64,000 bases of DNA from assembly GCA_903929765.1 (NCBI GenBank), contig CAIYVX010000063.1, forward strand, positions 10,174-74,173, read 5' to 3'. Position numbers and translations under genes: made by a program. The notes under the pieces were generated by a model. The model worked only from the letters and a program-made list of their open reading frames with translations, was not told where the DNA came from and searched no databases. Below are positions 4,515-57,340 of the stretch, piece by piece (position 1 is the stretch's first letter; each line of letters begins with the position of its first letter). This DNA is from an uncultured Planctomycetia bacterium. GTDB lineage: Bacteria; Planctomycetota; Phycisphaerae; FEN-1346; JAACEH01.

Positions 4515-6158
4515 TCACGCCTTCCGCCGATGCACAATATCGAAAAATTCTTCCAGCCTCAATAATTTCGCCGCCGCCAAATACACCCCGCCGCCCACCA
4601 CCGTCGCCGCCGCCAGCGCCGCCCAGGCCTGCGCCTTGCCCCCCGGCGCCAAGCCGCCCAGACCCGCCAACTCCATCGCCCCCCACGCCGCCGCCGTCAT
4701 CGCCGCCGTCGCCAAAACGCTCCGCCACAGCGTCGATAAATATTGCCGCAACCCCAGCCGTCCCAGCCGCCGCCGCAGCACCCACACCAGCCACAGGCAT
4801 TGTCCCCCCGCGCACAGCACCGTCGAGGCCGCCAGCCCCTCCAGCCCGAAATACCAGATCGAGGTCACGTTCAGCACAAAGTTGACCCCCGCCGCCGCCA
4901 TCGATGTCCGTACCGGCACGCGAGGTTCCTGCAACGCAAAAAACGCCCGCGTCACCAGATGTTGCACCGCAAACGGCAGCAGTCCGATCCCATAAATCGC
5001 CGTCATCCTCGCCACCTGCGGCGTGTCGGCCGGGTCGAACTTCCCGTGCTCAAACAGCACCCGCACCAGCGGCACAGCGGCGAGCGCCAGCCCCGCCGAG
5101 CACGGCAACGCGATCACTGTCGCCACGCGCAACCCCTGGTTCAGCGTCGCCGCCAGGCCCCGATGATCCACGTTCGCCGCATGACGCGCCAGCGCCGGAA
5201 AGATCGCCGTCCCCAGCGCGATGATGAACACACCCAGCGGCAACTGGTACAGCCGCTGCCCCAGGTACATCACCGAGTTGGCCGTCGCCTCCAGCGGATA
5301 TTTTATCGTGTGCCCCAGGAACTCAAACGTCGTCACCAGCCGCGCCGGGTCCGCCGCGTCCGGGTGCGGACTGAAGAACTGGGCCAGAAGTTGGTTTATG
5401 TAAATGTTAAATTGCACCACGCCCAGGGCCAGGATCATCGGCAGCATCAGCACCGCGATCTCCCGCAGGTACGGCGAGGCCAGATCCCACGCCGGCCGGA
5501 ACCGGAACCCCGCCCGCCACAGCGGCGGCACCTGCATCCCCACGTTCACCACCCCCAGCACCAGCACGCTCACCGCCAGGGCGTAAGCCTGCCGCTCCTC
5601 GTTTCCCGGCCACAGGTACCGCCCGCCCGCGCAGACCGCGATCATCCCCACGTTCAGCACCACCGGCGCCAGCGCCGGCGCCGAAAAATGTCCCCGCACG
5701 TTCAGCACGCCCTGCAACAGCGCCACCAGGCAGACCGTGATCAGAAACGGCAGCATCACCGCCGAAAGGCCCAGCGTCAGCTCAAACCGCGGGTCCGCCG
5801 CCCCGCCCCGGGCCACCGCCCAGTTGATGATCCAGATAATCCCCTCGCCGCACAGCGTCACCCCGGCCAGCAGCACCACCAGCACGGTGATGGCCAGGCA
5901 GGCCAGTTGCCGCGCCGCCTCCTCTTCCTTCTTTTCGACCAGGCGGGTGTAAACGGGCAGGAATGTGGTGGTCAGCGCCCCTTCGCCAAACAGCGTCCGA
6001 AACAGGTTGGGCAGCACGAACGCCGGCACCCAGGAATTCATCACCCCGCTCAGCCCGAACGCCGCCGCCAGGGCCATGTCGCGACCCAAGCCGGTCACGC
6101 GGCTGACGATGGTCAGGATCGATAACGTGCGGGCGTGTCTGACGAAATCGGCGGCCAC
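4515..6158 (-). CDS. murJ: Lipid II flippase MurJ (MviN).
   Basis: 547-aa polytopic membrane protein. The N-terminus ...TIVSRVTGLGRDMALAAAFG..., the overall length and the hydrophobic profile are typical of MurJ. Confidence 0.9.
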   Translation of the reverse strand: MAADFVRHARTLSILTIVSRVTGLGRDMALAAAFGLSGVMNSWVPAFVLPNLFRTLFGEGALTTTFLPVYTRLVEKKEEEAARQLACLAITVLVVLLAGVTLCGEGIIWIINWAVARGGAADPRFELTLGLSAVMLPFLITVCLVALLQGVLNVRGHFSAPALAPVVLNVGMIAVCAGGRYLWPGNEERQAYALAVSVLVLGVVNVGMQVPPLWRAGFRFRPAWDLASPYLREIAVLMLPMILALGVVQFNIYINQLLAQFFSPHPDAADPARLVTTFEFLGHTIKYPLEATANSVMYLGQRLYQLPLGVFIIALGTAIFPALARHAANVDHRGLAATLNQGLRVATVIALPCSAGLALAAVPLVRVLFEHGKFDPADTPQVARMTAIYGIGLLPFAVQHLVTRAFFALQEPRVPVRTSMAAAGVNFVLNVTSIWYFGLEGLAASTVLCAGGQCLWLVWVLRRRLGRLGLRQYLSTLWRSVLATAAMTAAAWGAMELAGLGGLAPGGKAQAWAALAAATVVGGGVYLAAAKLLRLEEFFDIVHRRKA

Positions 6159-6258
6159 GAGCGCTCCGAGATGGGCGATTTACCGCATCGGACGGCTGTT
6201 TAGGCCTCGAACGGTCCCAAATACCAGGTTTCCATCCGACCAGGACCCTTGCGACCGG

Positions 6259-7327: not shown

Positions 7328-7444
7328 CCACTTGGTCTGATTCCGCACTGACGGGAAGTTCCGGGCGGCGGCCCGGAGACGGCGCTAGAATTATGATTTT
7401 TCCTCCCCCGCAACCTCGGGGGGTCTTTCTGGTGAGCAGCGGCC

Positions 7445-8215
7445 GTGCCTGTGGGGATCAACGACATGTCGATAATTGTAACCTGTTGCTGTGGCCGGCA
7501 ATTGGAAGCCCCCGATACGGCCGCCGGCCGACAGGGCAAATGTTCTCTCTGCGGCCGAACCGTCTTCGTCCCGCAACGCAATTCCCAGGAACTCGTCATC
7601 TGGTCCGGCACCGACTTCCAACTCCTCGAAGCCGCCCTGCACCAGGAATTGCCCCAGCTCCCCATCCAGCCCGCCGACCGTATTCTCGACGAGGCCGAAA
7701 AATGGGCCAAAGTCTGGAAGCTCCCCCTCGACCGCAAGCCCCACCACGCCGGCTTCGACCTCATTTGCGACATGGTCTCTTCCTGCGTCATGCGCGATGC
7801 CGCCGTCGGCATGGACAAAGTCTCCGTCCTCCACACCAACGGCGAACAGATGATCCGCGTCGCCGTCCTGCGCGGCGAACGCAAGCTCCTCCACTTCATC
7901 GCCCGCAGCGGCGAAGACGAGTACCTCTGCTGGCACCACCGCGACGCCGACGACGACGAGGCCGAGACCGCCCGCGAGCGGACCGACGTCCTCCAGTCCA
8001 TCTCCTCCGGCGTCCACTGTGCCAAGTGCGAGCACAACATGGGCTACGTCCGCGTCACCAAGGCCGGCCTCGCCCCCATCGCCGGCTACCGCTGCGGTCG
8101 CTGCGGCCGAATCTTCTGCTCCAAATGCCACGGCGCCTTCGTCCGCGGCTGCCCCTTCTGCTCCGCCGGACACGAAGCCCTCATCCTCCTCGCCGCCCGC
8201 CTCGTCCCGAAATAA
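7445..8215 (+). CDS. Hypothetical zinc-ribbon protein with cysteine clusters at both ends. The start could alternatively be M at 7466.
   Basis: N-terminal CCCGRQ...CSLCGR and C-terminal CAKCEHN...YRCGRCGRIFCSKCHGAFVRGCPFC zinc-ribbon-like CxxC pairs. The overlapping ORFs 7393..8265 (+) and 7391..8440 (-) are low-complexity Pro/Arg or Gly frames and are less likely to be real genes. Confidence 0.5.
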   Translation: MPVGINDMSIIVTCCCGRQLEAPDTAAGRQGKCSLCGRTVFVPQRNSQELVIWSGTDFQLLEAALHQELPQLPIQPADRILDEAEKWAKVWKLPLDRKPHHAGFDLICDMVSSCVMRDAAVGMDKVSVLHTNGEQMIRVAVLRGERKLLHFIARSGEDEYLCWHHRDADDDEAETARERTDVLQSISSGVHCAKCEHNMGYVRVTKAGLAPIAGYRCGRCGRIFCSKCHGAFVRGCPFCSAGHEALILLAARLVPK

Positions 8216-8226
8216 CGCAGCTTTAT

Positions 8227-8250
8227 GTAGGTTGGGCCCTGGCCCGACAT
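8227..8250. repeat. Variant copy of the REP-type element (GTAGGTTGGGCCCTGGCCCGACAT), 12 nt after the stop codon at 8215.
   Basis: It shares its flanks and the CCCGACAT arm with the 4394-4417 copy. Confidence 0.6.
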
Positions 8251-8277
8251 TCTTCTTCTGTATAACTCTTCCGCAAA

Positions 8278-8769
8278 TTAAATCGTTTCGACCACACCTT
8301 GCGAGATCAGTTCCCCCACCACCCCCGCCGCCCTCATCCCCCGCCCGACAAACCGCAACACCCGCTCTTCCGCCCCCGCCACCGCAAAATATATCTCCAG
8401 CCGATCCGCCGGCAGAGCCTCCGGCACCCGGTCCGCCCACTCAATCACCGACACTCCGTCCGCCGCCAGAATTTCATCTGACCCCAGGTCGATCATTTCC
8501 CGCGCCGCCCGCAACCGATATGCGTCAAAATGGTAAACCGGCAGCCGCCCGCGATGAATCTGCATCAGCACGAACGTCGGGCTGGTACACTCATCCGCAT
8601 CGCCCCCCAGCCCCGCCACCAGCCCCTTCGTAAAACAGGTCTTCCCCGCCCCGAGGTCCCCGAACAGGCACAACACGTCCCCCGCCGCCACCAGCGCCGC
8701 CAGCCGCGCCGCCAACCGCTGCGTCTCCTCCACCGACCGGCACCGTGCCGTCGCCTCTGTTTCGCTCAT
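8278..8769 (-). CDS. tsaE: tRNA threonylcarbamoyladenosine biosynthesis ATPase TsaE (YjeE).
   Basis: The Walker-A-like GDLGAGKTCFTKG, then PTFVLMQIH...HFDAYRL, typical of TsaE. The ATG at 8769 overlaps the thiL stop codon in an ATGA arrangement. Confidence 0.85.
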   Translation of the reverse strand: MSETEATARCRSVEETQRLAARLAALVAAGDVLCLFGDLGAGKTCFTKGLVAGLGGDADECTSPTFVLMQIHRGRLPVYHFDAYRLRAAREMIDLGSDEILAADGVSVIEWADRVPEALPADRLEIYFAVAGAEERVLRFVGRGMRAAGVVGELISQGVVETI

Positions 8770-36511: not shown

Positions 36512-36591
36512 GGGCGGTCTTCCTTCAAGGACACAATGCGGTCAACGGCATTTCTATTTCCGCGTGGCGGCAAGCAGCCACCCTACATGAC

Positions 36592-52011: not shown

Positions 52012-52647
52012 TTGACCATGACGGAACCGGAAAATAATAATCCTCGTCCAACAACGCCAGAATGGAGTGCGCCGTCGAAACCGACGGAAGTGCCAACGGT
52101 GCCGCCGTGGCCGCCGGCAGGGTCGGCCGCGCCGGCGGCCAAGTCTAAGGGCTTGAGCCGGACGTGGTGGATCGTGCTGGGCGTGGGCCTGGGTTGCCTG
52201 ACGCCGCTCTTGCTTGGCGTCCTGTTCTTCGCTGGAGTGATGTTCTGGAAGAGTTCTGCGCATATTCGCAACGTCCGCAATACCCAAGAGTTCACGTTCC
52301 GGCACATGCAGCCGCCGGGCCTTTCGAGGGAGACTCCCGATTCGCCCTATGCAGCGCACGTCCGGACGTGGCAACATGGGAATCGCGGCGCTCCGGCGGA
52401 CGGCGATCTGGGGAAATTCCGGAAACAGTTGGACGAATGGGTGTTCGCGGAGAACGGCGAGCGTGTCCAGCGGGACTTAGGCGAAGTGACAAGCTTTGCG
52501 GCCTCGACGGAGTTCGCTTCGGAGGGGACGAGCGGAGTGAGCGTGGTGACGCTGGGTGGCACGGGGAGCCGGAAGGTGCGGCTGTATGTTTCGTTCTCGC
52601 AGGAGGTGGGCGGGGCGTGGGAGTTTAAGCTGAATATGTACAGATAA
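52012..52647 (+). CDS. Hypothetical membrane-anchored protein.
   Basis: A Pro-rich N-terminus followed by one transmembrane helix (WWIVLGVGLGCLTPLLLGVLFFAGVMFW). 211 aa. Confidence 0.45.
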   Translation: MTMTEPENNNPRPTTPEWSAPSKPTEVPTVPPWPPAGSAAPAAKSKGLSRTWWIVLGVGLGCLTPLLLGVLFFAGVMFWKSSAHIRNVRNTQEFTFRHMQPPGLSRETPDSPYAAHVRTWQHGNRGAPADGDLGKFRKQLDEWVFAENGERVQRDLGEVTSFAASTEFASEGTSGVSVVTLGGTGSRKVRLYVSFSQEVGGAWEFKLNMYR

Positions 52648-52717
52648 CGGCAGGCTTCAAGGACAGCCACGGCCGACGGATAAGGCCTTTCATTGCTGGT
52701 GCGTGCAAGCACGCCTC

Positions 52718-53221
52718 CTACCCATGCAATTCGTGGCAGCGTTGGCTGGCTTCGGCCAGGGCGGCGAGGTGGAGGCGTTCCTCGGCGACGATGCGCTCAA
52801 AGGCGGCGACGGCGGCCTTGGAGTCGGTGAAGCTGATCATTTCCTGGTAGAAAAGGAGGGCGTCGCGCTCGGCGCGGATGCCGACGGCCAGCGCGGCGAT
52901 GTCGTCGGCGGCCTCGGCCAGCAGGCGGGCGGGCGTGCCTTTCTCGGAAAAGACGTGCGAGGCGACCAGGTGCTGGACGTAGTCGGCGGTTTCGTCGTCC
53001 TCGACGGCGTCGGGGGTGCGCGGTTCGGCAAGAAGTTTCTTCTGGAGATCCTCGAACAAGCCGAGGTGCTGTCGTTCCTCGCCGGCCAGGTGGAGGAACA
53101 TTTTCTTGACGTAGGGGTCGCGCGTCTTCTCGGCGGCGCGGGTGTAGAAGTCGAGGCCGCACTGTTCCATGGCCGTGGCGATTTTGACGGCTTCGAGGTC
53201 GTCGAAGAACATGGATGACAT
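52718..53221 (-). CDS. Rubrerythrin-like ferritin-like di-iron protein, with no rubredoxin domain.
   Basis: Two E..H di-iron motifs (LAGEERQHL and VAEERLHLAAL) in a four-helix-bundle-sized protein of 167 aa. Confidence 0.7.
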   Translation of the reverse strand: MSSMFFDDLEAVKIATAMEQCGLDFYTRAAEKTRDPYVKKMFLHLAGEERQHLGLFEDLQKKLLAEPRTPDAVEDDETADYVQHLVASHVFSEKGTPARLLAEAADDIAALAVGIRAERDALLFYQEMISFTDSKAAVAAFERIVAEERLHLAALAEASQRCHELHG

Positions 53222-53236
53222 GGGCAGCCTCCCAAA

Positions 53237-53273
53237 GAAATTAAAAGTGAAAAATTAAAAATGCAAAATTAAC
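53237..53273. promoter_or_regulatory. AT-rich motif GAAATTAAAAGTGAAAAATTAAAAATGCAAAATTAAC, 16 nt upstream of the start codon of the rubrerythrin-like gene (in that gene's 5' UTR on the minus strand).
   Basis: It shares the core TTAAAAATGCAAAATTAA with 54501-54524 and with the reverse complement of 54634-54669. Confidence 0.5.
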
Positions 53274-53317
53274 GGCAAAAGAAACGGCGGAAAAAACGGC
53301 AACGCCAAGCAGCCACC

Positions 53318-54481
53318 CTACTTTCTACCGAAGGGGCTGATTTCGCGAAGGCGGCGCACGATGCCGGGCAGAACTTCGATGACTTTGTCCACGTCGGCGG
53401 CAGTGTTGTAAATCGAGAAAGAGAAACGAATCGAGCCGTGGGCGGCAGTGAAGGGGACGCCCATGGCGCGGAGAACGTGGCTGGGTTCCAGCGACCCCGT
53501 GGTGCAGGCCGAGCCGCTGGAGGCACAGATGCCGTGCTGGTCGAGCAGCAACAGGATGGCTTCGCCTTCGATGAATTCGAAACTGATGTTGGTCGTGTTG
53601 GGGAGGCGGTGAGCGGAGTCCCCGTTGACTTTGGCGTCGGGGCAACGGGCGAGAAGTTCGCGTTCGAGGCGGTCGCGGAGGGCGGCGACGGCGGTGTTCT
53701 CCTTATCCAGGTTGGCCAAAACCAGATCGGCGGCGCGGCCGAGGGCGACGAGGTTGGGCACGGCTTCGGTGCCGGCGCGGCGGTTGGATTCCTGGTGGCC
53801 GCCAAGCAGGAAGGGCGAGAAGCGGGTGCCGCGACGGACAAAGAGGGCGCCGACGCCTTTGGGAGCATGGAGCTTGTGGCCGGAAAGGCTCAGGAAATCG
53901 ATGGCCGAATTGGCCAGGTTGATCGGGACTTTGCCGACGGCCTGGACGGCGTCAGTGTGGAAGAGAGCGCCGTGGTCGCGAGCAATGGCGGCGCATTCTT
54001 CAACGGGGAAGATGACGCCGGTTTCGTTGTTGGCCCACATGACGCTGGCGACCGCAGTTTCGTCATCGACCGCAGCGCGGTACTGGTCCATATCCAATCG
54101 GCCCTGATGGTCGACGCCGACTTCGGTCAGGCGGAGGCCCTGGGTGTCGTGCAGGTGGCGGCAGAGGGTGCGGACGGCGGGGTGCTCGACGCGGGTGGTG
54201 ACGACGTGGCGGCGGTCGGGCAGCGTGGCCAGGGCGGAGAGGATGGCGGTGGAGTCGCTTTCGGTGCCGCAGGAGGTGAAGATGATTTCACTGGGGTGGG
54301 CGCCGAGGAGTCGGGCCAGGGCCTCGCGGGCTTCGCTGATGCGGTTCATGACCAGGCCGCCGAAGGTGTGGATGCTCGATGGGTTGCCGTAGGATTCGCG
54401 GAGGTAGGGCAACATGGCCTCAAGAACTTCGGGGGCGACGGCGGTGGTGGCGTTGTTGTCAAGGTAAACGACGTTGGGCAT
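53318..54481 (-). CDS. nifS: Cysteine desulfurase.
   Basis: The start is MPNVVYLDNNATT. The PLP-lysine motif is SGHKLHAPKG, and the active-site cysteine region is SSGSACTTGS. Confidence 0.9.
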   Translation of the reverse strand: MPNVVYLDNNATTAVAPEVLEAMLPYLRESYGNPSSIHTFGGLVMNRISEAREALARLLGAHPSEIIFTSCGTESDSTAILSALATLPDRRHVVTTRVEHPAVRTLCRHLHDTQGLRLTEVGVDHQGRLDMDQYRAAVDDETAVASVMWANNETGVIFPVEECAAIARDHGALFHTDAVQAVGKVPINLANSAIDFLSLSGHKLHAPKGVGALFVRRGTRFSPFLLGGHQESNRRAGTEAVPNLVALGRAADLVLANLDKENTAVAALRDRLERELLARCPDAKVNGDSAHRLPNTTNISFEFIEGEAILLLLDQHGICASSGSACTTGSLEPSHVLRAMGVPFTAAHGSIRFSFSIYNTAADVDKVIEVLPGIVRRLREISPFGRK

Positions 54482-54490
54482 CGGTGGAGT

Positions 54491-54524
54491 CCTTAAAATC
54501 AATGCAAAATTAAAAATTAACAGC
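54491..54524. promoter_or_regulatory. AT-rich motif CCTTAAAATCAATGCAAAATTAAAAATTAACAGC, 10 nt upstream of the nifS start codon.
   Basis: On the nifS coding strand it reads as an AU-rich leader, TTAATTTTTAATTTTGCATTGATTTTAAGG, that runs up to the ribosome-binding site. Confidence 0.5.
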
Positions 54525-54633
54525 AAGAGTACCGCCGGCCACCTGGCTAGCCGGGAGCCGCGAGTTATGTAGGGCGGCTGCTTGACAGCCGCCATGTCAA
54601 AAGATCGTTTTCCGCTTGATGTTGCTGCTTCTT

Positions 54634-54669
54634 TTCAATTTTTAATTTTGCATTTTTAATTTTTAATTG
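54634..54669. promoter_or_regulatory. Inverted copy of the AT-rich motif (TTTCAATTTTTAATTTTGCATTTTTAATTTTTAATTGC), 5 nt downstream of the nifU stop codon.
   Basis: It is the reverse complement of the 54501-54524 core. Together the two copies form an inverted repeat about 110 nt apart within the nifU-nifS spacer. Confidence 0.5.
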
Positions 54670-54673
54670 CCTC

Positions 54674-55525
54674 TCATGCCACCTGCTCGACGTGAATCGT
54701 TTCGTCGACGAGTTCGCGGAGCTTCTGTTCAACCACGCTCTTGAGGGTGAACTGGCTGACGCGGCAGTTGGAGCAGGTGCCGCGCAGGGCGACGGTGACT
54801 TTGGCCCGGTCGATGTCGATGATTTCGATGTCGCCGCCGTCGTTGCGGAGCCAGGGCCGGATTTCGCGTTCGACGACTTCCTCGATGCGCTTGACGCGTT
54901 CGAGGTTGGTAAGCGGACGCTTTTGCGCGGCGGGGGAAGCCGCCACGGCTTTGCCCGTCGCGGGTTTCGCATTAACATGGTCGATGATTTTCTGAATTTC
55001 CTTGTGACAGCCGCCGCAACCGCCGCCGGCCTTGCAATAGTGGGTGACCTGCTCGATGGTGGTCAGGCCGTGTTCGCGAATGACTTTTTCGATGAGCTGG
55101 TCGGTGACGCCGAAGCAGCGGCAGACGACGGTGCCTTCGGCCACGGCCAGGGTTTCGTGTCGGTAGGCGGCGATGGCTTTTTCGAGGGCTTCCATGCCCA
55201 TGACGGAGCAGTGCATTTTGGCTTCGGGCAGGCCCTGGAGGAAATCGGCAATGTCGTCGTTGGAAAGCTTGGCGGCCTGGTCGAGGGTCATGCCCTTGAT
55301 CATTTCGGTGACGGCGCTGGAACTGGCGATGGCCGAGGCGCAGCCAAAGGTCTGAAAGCGGGCGTCGAGGATGCGCTGGGTGGCCTTGTCGATGCGGAGA
55401 GTCAGCTTGAGAGCGTCGCCGCAAGTAATGTTGCCGACCTCGGCGACGGCGTCGGGATTTTCGATTTCCCCGACGTTGCGCGGATGGAGGAAATGGTCTT
55501 TGACCTTTTCACTGTAGTCCCACAT
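54674..55525 (-). CDS. nifU: Fe-S cluster assembly scaffold NifU (three-domain type).
   Basis: The N-terminal IscU-like domain (GNITCGDALKL, FQTFGCASAIASSS, HCSVMGMEAL), a central domain with CRCFG and CGGCH Cys pairs, and the C-terminal NifU domain GTCSNC. Confidence 0.9.
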   Translation of the reverse strand: MWDYSEKVKDHFLHPRNVGEIENPDAVAEVGNITCGDALKLTLRIDKATQRILDARFQTFGCASAIASSSAVTEMIKGMTLDQAAKLSNDDIADFLQGLPEAKMHCSVMGMEALEKAIAAYRHETLAVAEGTVVCRCFGVTDQLIEKVIREHGLTTIEQVTHYCKAGGGCGGCHKEIQKIIDHVNAKPATGKAVAASPAAQKRPLTNLERVKRIEEVVEREIRPWLRNDGGDIEIIDIDRAKVTVALRGTCSNCRVSQFTLKSVVEQKLRELVDETIHVEQVA

Positions 55526-55565
55526 GGTGAGTCCTTTCAGAACAGCAGTCCTCAGTCTTCAGGCA

Positions 55566-55645
55566 CAGCAACTGCAGAAACACCGGCGTCCCCCAGCAGT
55601 GCTGGTGGCTTCAAAAAAAGAAGCAACAACGGCAACAGCCCCGTC
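55566..55645. repeat. Copy of the repeat family CAGAAACA-CCCCCAGCAGTGCTGGTGGCTTCAAAAAAAGAAGCAACAACGGCAACAGCC, 40 nt upstream of the nifU start codon.
   Basis: Same modules as 38945-39030 and 47527-47600. Confidence 0.65.
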
Positions 55646-55981
55646 TCACTTCATTCTAGCGGGAGGAGCGTACGGCGGCAAGCGGTGATTTACGGGTCGT
55701 TTTCTGTTGACGAGGGCAGGGAGGCGGAGATAGAATGCTCGGTCGCAGGCGGGTCCGTTGACGTGGGCCCTGGTGATGTGGAAGAAGTCGAGGTCGGCCC
55801 GAGACGGGAACGAGGCGTATTCCCTGGAGTCAGAGCATGTAGCGAGCGGCATTAAGATCCTCGGCGTCCCGAAGAAGTTCGAGGCGTCTGCCGCGCCAGA
55901 GGCGCGGCCTGTAGGTGGGGTCCGCTCGCAGCGCTCCACTTTTTTGTTTTTATATGGCCAGGCAGGAAGCAAGGAGAAGGT

Positions 55982-57340
55982 ATGAACAATGAATTGTTGC
56001 GGCTGATCGACGCGATCGCCCGCGAGAAGAACATCGACCGCGAGGTGGTGCTCCAGGGCATCGAAGGGGCGCTGCTCAGCGCCGCCCACAAGCATTGCGG
56101 GATGACGGCCAACGTGGTGGCGAGCATCGACCGGATCACGGGGGCGATGAGCGTGACCTGCGACGGCAAGGAGCTCGACCCGAAACACCTGGGGCGGATA
56201 GCAGCCCAGGCGGCCAAACAGGTGCTGATCCACAAGAACCGCGAGGCGGAGCGGAGTTCGATCTTCGGCGAGTACCAGGGCCGCAAGGGTTCGATCATTT
56301 CGGGCCAGGTTTCGCGGGCCGAGGGCGGGAACATCGTCGTAAACCTGGGCCGGGTGGAGGGCTTTTTGCCGCGCTCGGAGCAGATTCCCGGCGAGGCGAT
56401 TCACGAGGCCGACCGGATTCGGGCGTTGATTTTCGACGTGCGCGAGGCCGGCAACCAGGTCAAGATCATCCTGTCGCGGACCAGTCCGGACTTCATCCGG
56501 CGGCTGTTCGAGCTGGAGGTGCCGGAGGTGGCCGACCGGATCATCGAGATCAAGGGCATCGCCCGCGAGGCGGGACAGCGGACGAAAATCGCGGTGACGT
56601 CGATCGACACGCGGGTGGACGCGGTGGGGGCGTGCGTGGGAATTCGCGGCTCGCGGATCAAAAACATCGTGGAGGAACTGGGCGGCGAAAAAATCGACAT
56701 CGTGCGCTTTAACGAATCCTCGCAGGTGTTCATCGCCAACGCCCTGCGGCCGGCCCTGGTGGAAGACATTTTCCTGAATCACGAACTGGGCCGGGCGACG
56801 GTGATCGTGCCGGAAGACCAGTTGAGCCTGGCCATCGGCAAGCGCGGCCAGAACGTGCGCCTGGCGGCGCGGCTGACGGGATGGGACCTGGACATCATGA
56901 TGGCGGGCGAGTTCGCCCAGCAGCGGGACAACGCCGTCAAGGTGCTGGCCGAGGTGCCGGGGATGGACCAGGCCCTGGCGGAGCGGATTGCGGCGGCTGG
57001 GTTTGTGTCGCTGGGCGACATTGCCCGGCTCGACCCGCAGATTCTGACGCGGTTCGAAGGGGTGAACGAACAACTTTCGCAGGACATTATCAACTTCTCG
57101 GCCGAGTATGTGCGGCAGCTTGAAGCGGCCAAGACGGAGGAGACGGTGGCGTTGGCGTCGGCGACGGCGGAAGGTGAATTGATCGCGGGCGCGGAGTTGG
57201 CCGAGAACGCCCCGGACGCGCCGAGCGAAGGTCTGGCGGAGGTTCTGGACGCGGAAGGCGCGGCGGCGGAAGGTGAAAAAGCCGTCGAGAAACCGGCGGA
57301 AACCGAGAAGCCGGGTGAGGCGGAGAAGCCGAGCGCGTAA
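55982..57340 (+). CDS. nusA: Transcription termination/antitermination factor NusA.
   Basis: The N-terminal NusA domain ([20 protein letters not shown]), the S1 domain, and the KH domains with [22 protein letters not shown] and [21 protein letters not shown]. Confidence 0.95.

Follow-up and report, generated by a model that had tools for sequence, protein, structure and literature searches.

Three arrays of AT-rich heptads lie between nifU, nifS and a rubrerythrin/ferritin-like gene (rbr), all on the minus strand, in a 64,000-nt stretch of contig CAIYVX010000063.1 from an uncultured Planctomycetia bacterium (hereafter the window). On balance, we read these arrays as the arms of a hairpin insertion that lacks an open reading frame (ORF), resembles the intervening sequences (IVSs) of rRNA, and acts, if it acts at all, at the RNA level. 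That the arrays belong to a widespread class of heptad arrays is very likely. A relationship with IVSs and with elements carrying PF05635 genes is fairly probable, and the chance that the element takes effect through an RNA hairpin is close to even or slightly lower. The insertion is probably selfish or near-neutral in origin rather than a regulon-specific signal. For this locus, the analysis removes a tempting but wrong annotation, that of an operator for Fe-S and oxidative-stress genes, and offers a testable RNA-level hairpin model instead.

Heptad arrays in the nifU-nifS-rbr spacers

The first-pass annotation of the window described a 25-mer repeated three times around these genes in a genome of about 67% GC; the measured GC content of the window is 63%. 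An AT-island scan confirms that three AT-rich copies occupy the nifU, nifS and rbr spacers and that the third is inverted (Table 1). These islands are the three longest in the 64 kb, with copies 1 and 2 A-rich on the plus strand and copy 3 their inverted complement. Tandem Repeats Finder (TRF) resolves all three into a period of 7 nt (copy 1: 5.0 units, 53238-53272; copy 2: 2.1 units, 54506-54520; copy 3: 5.3 units, 54632-54668), and the repeating unit is a head-to-tail tandem heptad, AAAATTA/AAAATGC, not a 25-mer. The 18-mer TTAAAAATGCAAAATTAA occurs exactly only twice (53255-53272, plus strand; 54642-54659, minus strand), with 0 matches expected from 100 shuffles. Copy 2 has just the 13-nt core AATGCAAAATTAA in common with it, in a shifted register, and stays unmatched even at three mismatches. 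A motif core of the form TTAA-N3-TGCA-N3-TTAA is quasi-palindromic. Additionally, the nifU-nifS spacer is base-for-base the same in two other independent assemblies from the European Nucleotide Archive, which indicates that the arrays are real and no assembly artefact.

On the mRNA, copy 3 forms an A-rich arm (A-arm), AAUUAAA AAUUAAA AAUGCAA AAUUAAA AAUUGAA, which begins 4 nt past the nifU stop codon. The other two copies form U-rich arms: arm 2 (copy 2) ends 9 nt 5' of the nifS ATG, just before an AAGGA Shine-Dalgarno (SD) sequence, and arm 1 (copy 1) ends 15 nt 5' of the rbr ATG, before a GGGAGG SD sequence. Each of these distances is one nucleotide less than first given (5, 10 and 16 nt). 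Both U-arms are complementary to the A-arm, so that inverted arms enclose the element in a long stem, as in IVSs. The match to arm 1, 1.35 kb away, is perfect over 23 nt and reaches 80% over 41 nt; the match to arm 2, 100 nt away, is weaker, at 85% over 27 nt.

Structure prediction places the arms in one fold. The 216-nt nifU-nifS spacer RNA (54470-54685, minus strand) has a predicted energy of -69.1 kcal/mol (z = -3.6; none of 200 shuffles reached it), within a range of -69 to -73 kcal/mol across folds, and forms a long AU stem around three GC hairpins, with arm 2 as the partner of the A-arm in the local minimum-free-energy structure. When slightly longer flanks are included, the last codons of nifU and its stop codon are predicted to pair, at the base of the stem, with the stretch from the SD sequence to the AUG of nifS. 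This fold of the nifU-nifS intergenic RNA, a check proposed in the first-pass annotation, supports its suggestion that the nifS leader could be sequestered by pairing of copies 2 and 3 on a polycistronic mRNA. That suggestion missed copy 1, which is the better partner of copy 3: duplex energies are -36.0 kcal/mol for A-arm/arm 2 and -44.7 kcal/mol for A-arm/arm 1, and when the full 1.5 kb is folded, arm 1 takes over as the partner in the structure of minimum free energy. Since the A-arm can pair with either U-arm, the models suggest that a single A-arm could sequester either U-rich leader, that of nifS or that of rbr. During transcription, the local partner, arm 2, would be expected to pair first. 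The CATG at the nifU end pairs with either start codon as a trivial palindrome, a match to which no weight was given.

Orthologous loci show turnover of the arrays rather than conservation. Exact and relaxed searches found the 18-mer motif absent from about 80 orthologous nifS loci in GTDB genomes, a set of 80 whose best match, a metagenome-assembled genome (MAG) of the Phycisphaerae, shares 74% NifS identity with the window. Closer relatives (L203-L206) were found via NifU homologues. Two of them, L203 and L204 (91% nifU nucleotide identity), hold a hairpin of a different heptad, CGAATAT...ATATTCG, in the same spacer. L205, also at 91%, has (AAAAGTA)n directly after the nifU stop codon; its contig ends in this array (L205:2159-2198), so that a partner arm is not visible, and heptad arrays may break short-read assemblies in this way. 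In L206 (79% nifU nucleotide identity), which keeps the nifU-nifS-rbr synteny, the nifU-nifS and nifS-rbr spacers are filled with two and six GTAG-tagged hairpins, respectively, of the repetitive extragenic palindromic (REP) type (CGTAGGGACAGGGCTTGTCCCTGTCCG). These REP spacers lie at 6115-6253 and 7424-7733, with a third downstream of rbr at 8229-8415 (at least one copy), and GTTGYTG-rich tracts separate the hairpins; an AATTTCC/GGAAATT heptad hairpin stands 5' of nifU. A CCGAAAT-heptad hairpin also lies between nifU and nifS in L038 (Sedimentisphaerales). By sequence comparison, then, the array sequence is not conserved, yet hairpin repeats recur in the same spacer after the nifU stop codon. 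This refilling with differing repeats largely rules out a sequence-specific operator and points to turnover of elements, or to selection on structure and not on sequence.

Heptad arrays in other phyla and around PF05635 genes

A scan of metagenome contigs with the 18-mer returned more than 120 stretches among the matches listed. In AT-rich contigs, the matches resemble chance occurrences inside genes. In contigs with a GC content of at least 0.45, the matches listed comprise 27 loci, and these are again heptad arrays. An inverted T-rich partner lies within 350 nt on the 3' side at 16 of these 27 listed loci and on the other side at only two, and the T-rich strand adjoins a start codon at about 11 of the 27. 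Several reproduce the layout of the window, with a stop codon, an A-arm, a short GC loop, a T-arm and an ATG between co-directional genes; for example, the birA-coaX spacer of a Verrucomicrobiae contig (L147) holds such a stop-[A-arm]-loop-[T-arm]-ATG hairpin. Cluster look-up assigns L147, L089 and L183 to the Verrucomicrobiota, and the closest homologues of the PF05635 protein in L093, a contig with a phycobilisome-linker-like gene, are cyanobacterial. Tetranucleotide similarity, tried as a means of placing the GC-rich matches in the lineage of the window, did not discriminate, with Deltaproteobacteria loci scoring equally.

The genes beside the 18-mer in other lineages show no Fe-S bias and include coaX, tsf, a short-chain dehydrogenase/reductase (SDR) gene, tRNAs and an rRNA spacer. 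In L088, a T-array lies between putative rpsB and tsf genes, read from the translation. In L151, an 18-mer hairpin separates tRNA-Ile from tRNA-Ala in an rRNA operon (L151:3446-3519), and heptad hairpins or arrays adjoin tRNA genes at L076:6706-6811, L076:9215-9530 and L111:1-114. The surroundings of the arrays in L151, L076 and L111 are contexts of stable-RNA processing.

Heptads also accompany the genes of a protein family named after IVSs. Inverted heptad arrays flank all nine of the distinct PF05635 elements examined. In three different MAGs, a small gene between inverted arrays (GAGTTTT...AAAACTC) lies directly 5' of nifU (L029:3463-3890, L018:1355-1790 and L017:850-1250). Pfam assigns this gene to PF05635 ('23S rRNA-intervening sequence protein') in L029 and L018, and jackhmmer matches it in L017; going by these three cases, insertion may favour the surroundings of nifU. 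The PF05635 gene of L093 has AAAATTC/AAAATGC arms, the sequence type of the window, and an ORF-less 18-mer hairpin stands about 300 nt away. L156 carries two PF05635 genes with CTACTAG-type arms.

Other PF05635 elements occupy operon spacers or toxin-antitoxin-like surroundings. In the verrucomicrobial contigs L207-L216, the element has GAATAGG arms and separates two MacB/FtsX permease genes within a single ABC-transporter operon, with its first heptad overlapping the upstream stop codon and its 3' arm ending a few nucleotides before the next ATG. The cyanobacterial L217 family and L227 (Pyrinomonadaceae) have AAAAGGT/AAAAGTA arms, the type found after nifU in L205. Across L217-L226, the order is T-arm, PF05635 ORF, A-arm, about 55 nt, and a second T-arm (e.g. 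L217:1390-2000). The neighbours of these elements are HepT/MNT, XisH/XisI and DUF4258/DUF2283, and they differ by contig, which suggests mobility. Proteins of the PF05635 set (P0121-P0240) are 65-70% identical across Cyanobacteria, Verrucomicrobiota and Acidobacteria (Pyrinomonadaceae), an unusually high value that suggests horizontal transfer of whole elements among the L207, L217 and L227 groups. The family is very large, with more than 7,900 matches among 8,000 candidates scored.

An RNA-level model and its alternatives

Taken together with the predicted folds, these patterns suggest a mechanism. An ORF-less relative of IVS elements, whose ORF-bearing form has a PF05635 (S23p, four-helix-bundle) gene enclosed by inverted heptad arrays, would settle in stop-start spacers, tRNA flanks and rRNA. 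At the window locus, the A-arm emerging after the nifU stop codon would pair co-transcriptionally with arm 2 into a stem of at least 27 bp; this stem would hide some of the nifS initiation region across from the stop codon of nifU and couple nifS translation to ribosomes that terminate at nifU. The insertion could be tolerated in so short a spacer because the stem keeps the nifU stop and the nifS start adjacent. By analogy with rRNA IVSs, RNase III would be likely to cut an AU duplex of this length (at least 23-27 bp). Alternatively, the A-arm may pair with arm 1 and bury the rbr leader, in which case the balance between NifS and rubrerythrin could shift.

A bolder extension, which we consider possible but unlikely, joins all these elements in one cross-phylum, IVS-like selfish family, with a PF05635-encoding form and ORF-less miniatures in operon spacers, tRNA flanks and rRNA. 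Such insertions would be tolerated because their flanks are held adjacent and RNase III can remove them. The heptads would be read by the PF05635 pentamer or by some other factor whose footprint is 7 nt, and the A-arm would toggle translation between NifS and rubrerythrin.

Several observations weigh against reading the arrays as an IVS-like hairpin insertion. Neither the window nor the hairpin cores yielded a PF05635 gene or a remnant of one in searches with jackhmmer and with a hidden Markov model of 120 sequences against six-frame translations, so that the link to IVSs is drawn from the type of arm and the architecture that they share. The remaining 62 kb of the window contain no further arrays of the AAAATTA/AAAATGC type, and neither polymorphism nor 7-nt indels separate the window from the two other assemblies, which come from the same population. 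No direct repeat that would mark a target-site duplication, as expected of a miniature inverted-repeat transposable element (MITE), is seen by eye at the flanks, where no formal search was made. The order of the arms, A-rich or T-rich first, varies among other heptad families. With the T-arm of L204 at 47 nt from the ATG, juxtaposition of stop and start does not hold throughout. The model predicts translational coupling, cleavage by RNase III and a common transcript for the three genes, and it gives no account of the 7-nt period.

The alternative that survives best, to which we give a minor but real share of the probability, treats the U-rich heptads as an AU-rich translational enhancer, either an unstructured standby site or tandem sites for a protein that covers about 7 nt, such as ribosomal protein S1 or cold-shock proteins, with the A-arm as an anti-enhancer. 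The short distances from arms 1 and 2 to their ATGs fit this idea, as does the T-rich strand at start codons in about 11 of the 27 GC-rich loci listed, partnerless arrays (L155, L129, L088 and L107) included. There is also a precedent in TAACTGA repeats, which stand just 5' of starts, and in CspB, which binds T-rich heptamers with one protein on each (PMC4679880). An enhancer does not account for copy 3, which follows a stop codon and, on the mRNA, is rich in A, for the A-rich strand that adjoins the nifU ATG in L017, L018 and L029, or for the 47-nt spacing in L204. Arrays at tRNAs and in an rRNA spacer, where nothing is translated, likewise argue against it.

It is improbable that the arrays act at the DNA level, be it as internal promoters (TAATTT fits TAnnnT), as an AT cruciform or supercoiling sink, or as sites for a nucleoid or heptad-binding protein. 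Set in a GC-rich genome, AT islands are prone to melting, and the DNA strand, too, folds beyond its shuffles (-38.9 kcal/mol, z = -3.9). Candidate binders are the PF05635 pentamer itself or ribbon-helix-helix proteins of the omega type; the omega repressor of pSM19035 recognises 7-bp heptads in arrays. Paired heptanucleotide arrays in Geobacter metallireducens are annotated as putative global-regulator sites (PMC2700814). Against this stands a sigma-70 consensus scan that found no -35/-10 pair at any array, though the lineage uses a standard TTGCCG-17-TAGAAT promoter; the sole promoter found is the conserved one 5' of nifU. A promoter in copy 3 would, moreover, transcribe antisense to nifU, and a heptad-binding protein is neither known nor encoded in the window. 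Hand-built -35/-10 pairs in the T-rich arms (TTGCAT or TTGCCG with TAATTT) were dropped, as their spacing and matches differ between copies.

The chance that the A-tract, hairpin and U-tract form an intrinsic, possibly bidirectional terminator or attenuator between cistrons is slight. The A-rich 5' arm and U-rich 3' arm do read alike on both strands, and weak terminator-like sites occur at 54537-54521 and 53317-53298 on the minus strand. Such sites are not above background, however (7 in the region, where shuffles give 4.1 +/- 1.6), most of the metagenomic hairpins have loops other than GC hairpins, and other heptad hairpins have the opposite arm order. The element also lies inside an operon, directly before a ribosome-binding site.

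It is very improbable that the repeats are a sequence-specific operator through which one transcription factor controls Fe-S, iron or oxidative-stress genes, a role among those first proposed for them. Three copies do cluster at genes related in function, with none elsewhere in the 64 kb, and the core of the motif is quasi-palindromic, yet the motif is missing from the roughly 80 nifS loci and from the 91% and 79% relatives, which carry other repeats instead, the copies are intercistronic and more than 1 kb 3' of the conserved nifU promoter, and the same 18-mer stands beside unrelated genes in other phyla. This lack of functional bias is what the first-pass annotation had itself named as evidence against a regulatory motif. 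The motif shows no evident fit to the IHF, Fur, PerR and IscR consensus sequences.

Set beside known systems, the IVS-like hairpin shares inverted, heptameric arms and a long stem that prolongs a helix and brings its flanks together with the S23p/PF05635 IVSs of rRNA, some of which also lack an ORF. In Coxiella burnetii, the IVS is located in helix 45 of 23S rRNA and described as 'selfish'; tandem heptamers (GACAGAT), whose copy number varies among strains, precede its S23p ORF, and RNase III cuts at the first of them (PMC4990558). Distribution is sporadic and horizontal-looking in both cases, and the published Coxiella example offers the precedent for an RNase III substrate (PMC4990558). Unlike rRNA IVSs, the window element is ORF-less, has one A-arm and two U-arms, and lies in an mRNA intercistronic spacer between protein-coding genes, not in helix 25 or 45 of 23S rRNA. 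Because it has the arms and the heptads and lacks the ORF and the rRNA site, we class it as IVS-like in its working and not as a member of the IVSs.

Tandem heptamers have been seen repeatedly and never explained. Dispersed tandem heptamers of heterocystous cyanobacteria, the short tandemly repeated repetitive sequences (STRRs), were reportedly described by Mazel in 1990, with sequences other than those of the window, and a 1997 paper by Vioque reportedly places STRR heptamers in the gene of a stable RNA, RNase P RNA. TAACTGA repeats are known from Beggiatoaceae, Cyanobacteria and Bacteroidetes (MacGregor 2015, PMC4679880). Like the arrays here, they are intergenic heptamers, mostly a few nucleotides 5' of starts, in distant phyla and with no pattern of gene function (PMC4679880); arms 1 and 2 have this placement. 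Unlike the TAACTGA sets, which are nearly all direct, with one indirect (PMC4679880), the window arms are inverted and complementary, and their heptad differs. Geobacter metallireducens has paired tandem 7- or 8-nt arrays on opposite strands at tens of intergenic sites, annotated as putative 'global regulator binding sites', with protein binding as a hypothesis only (PMC2700814). Its GTTGCTYN-like octads resemble the GTTGCTG tracts flanking arrays here, although sequences and phylum differ (PMC2700814).

REPs and bacterial interspersed mosaic elements (BIMEs), including GTAG-tagged REPs (PMC3733652), are likewise small hairpin repeats that fill operon spacers, and a GTAG hairpin is part of the module described below. 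Unlike REPs, the AT-rich heptad arms are built of tandem units and have neither a GTAG tag nor a GC palindrome. Intercistronic REPs stabilise upstream mRNA. In the literature covered, which is incomplete, we found no publication on heptad-armed hairpins in mRNA spacers or on a general flanking of PF05635 genes by heptads. Rfam covariance models run over 52600-56000 gave 0 matches at E <= 1.

Collectively, the occurrence of identical AT-rich heptads in Planctomycetota, Verrucomicrobiota and Cyanobacteria, the stop-[arm]-loop-[arm]-start hairpins and the heptad-flanked PF05635 genes examined suggest that the scattered heptamer reports (cyanobacterial STRRs, TAACTGA repeats, Geobacter sites and Coxiella IVS repeats) describe one class of mobile, IVS-like hairpin element. 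If true, this would give context to PF05635, a very large family of unknown function.

Genes, promoter and REP-like module

The features of the locus are collected in Table 1. A single promoter 5' of nifU, conserved in four relatives (L203/L204, L205 and L206), is the probable start of a nifU-nifS-rbr transcript, judging from sequence.

Table 1. Genes, promoter and repeat features around the heptad arrays, in window coordinates
Feature	Position	Strand	Description and basis
nifU	54674..55525	-	NifU proper, 283 aa; TIGR02000, 373 bits
nifS	53318..54481	-	387 aa; TIGR03402, 616 bits, alignment from residue 5
Rubrerythrin/ferritin-like gene (rbr)	52718..53221	-	167 aa; PF02915
Probable sigma-70-type promoter, TTGCCG-17-TAGAAT	55653..55681	-	Consensus promoter scan; about 125 nt 5' of the nifU ATG
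A-rich heptad arm (A-arm, copy 3)	54626..54673	-	AT island (54626-54674); TRF; inverted-repeat pairs
U-rich heptad arm 2 (copy 2)	54492..54528	-	AT island; TRF; 85% complementary to A-arm over 27 nt
U-rich heptad arm 1 (copy 1)	53233..53274	-	AT island; TRF; 23 nt perfect complement of A-arm
GC-rich core (about 100 nt) between A-arm and arm 2	54529..54625	-	Predicted fold: three small hairpins
GTAG-tagged REP-like GC hairpin in core	54569..54593	+	GTAG GGCGGCTG CTTGA CAGCCGCC; repeated 16-mer
Second REP-like copy, GTAGGGTGGCTGCTTG...	53298..53321	-	Overlaps nifS stop codon; inverted-repeat match and alignment
12-nt period repeat GCAAAAGAAACG, 3.3 copies	53263..53302	.	TRF; between second REP-like copy and arm 1, adjoining arm 1

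The GC-rich core carries a REP-like hairpin of its own, GTAGGGCGGCTG-CTTGA-CAGCCGCC, in which a GTAG tetranucleotide stands beside a GC-rich palindrome, as in multi-copy GTAG-tagged REPs. Its 16-mer (GTAGGGYGGCTGCTTG...) occurs in three close copies in the window against 0.87 expected: 54569-54593 on the plus strand, and 53306-53321 and 36571-36586 on the minus strand. The copies at 36571 and 53306 lie at or just past stop codons, and the third is inverted within the nifU-nifS spacer. These three copies suggest that the genome harbours a REP family. In the alignment, the second REP-like copy and arm 1 make up an inverted paralogue, about 100 nt long, of 54569-54669. The recurrence of the 16-mer beside the arrays thus points to a module of about 100 nt, composed of the GTAG hairpin, a linker and T-rich heptads, that is present twice in inverted orientation; a third array exists besides these two modules.

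Gene callers extend ORFs through heptad arrays, which matters in practice for annotation. The true nifS start is the ATG at 54481, as in the gene call of L001, and the 425-aa nifS ORF that starts at 54595 and ends at 53318 is an artefact of ORF listing that runs through arm 2. False N-terminal extensions by read-through of heptad arrays affect both nifS (425 instead of 387 aa) and CoaX in Verrucomicrobiae contigs (279 instead of 253 aa).

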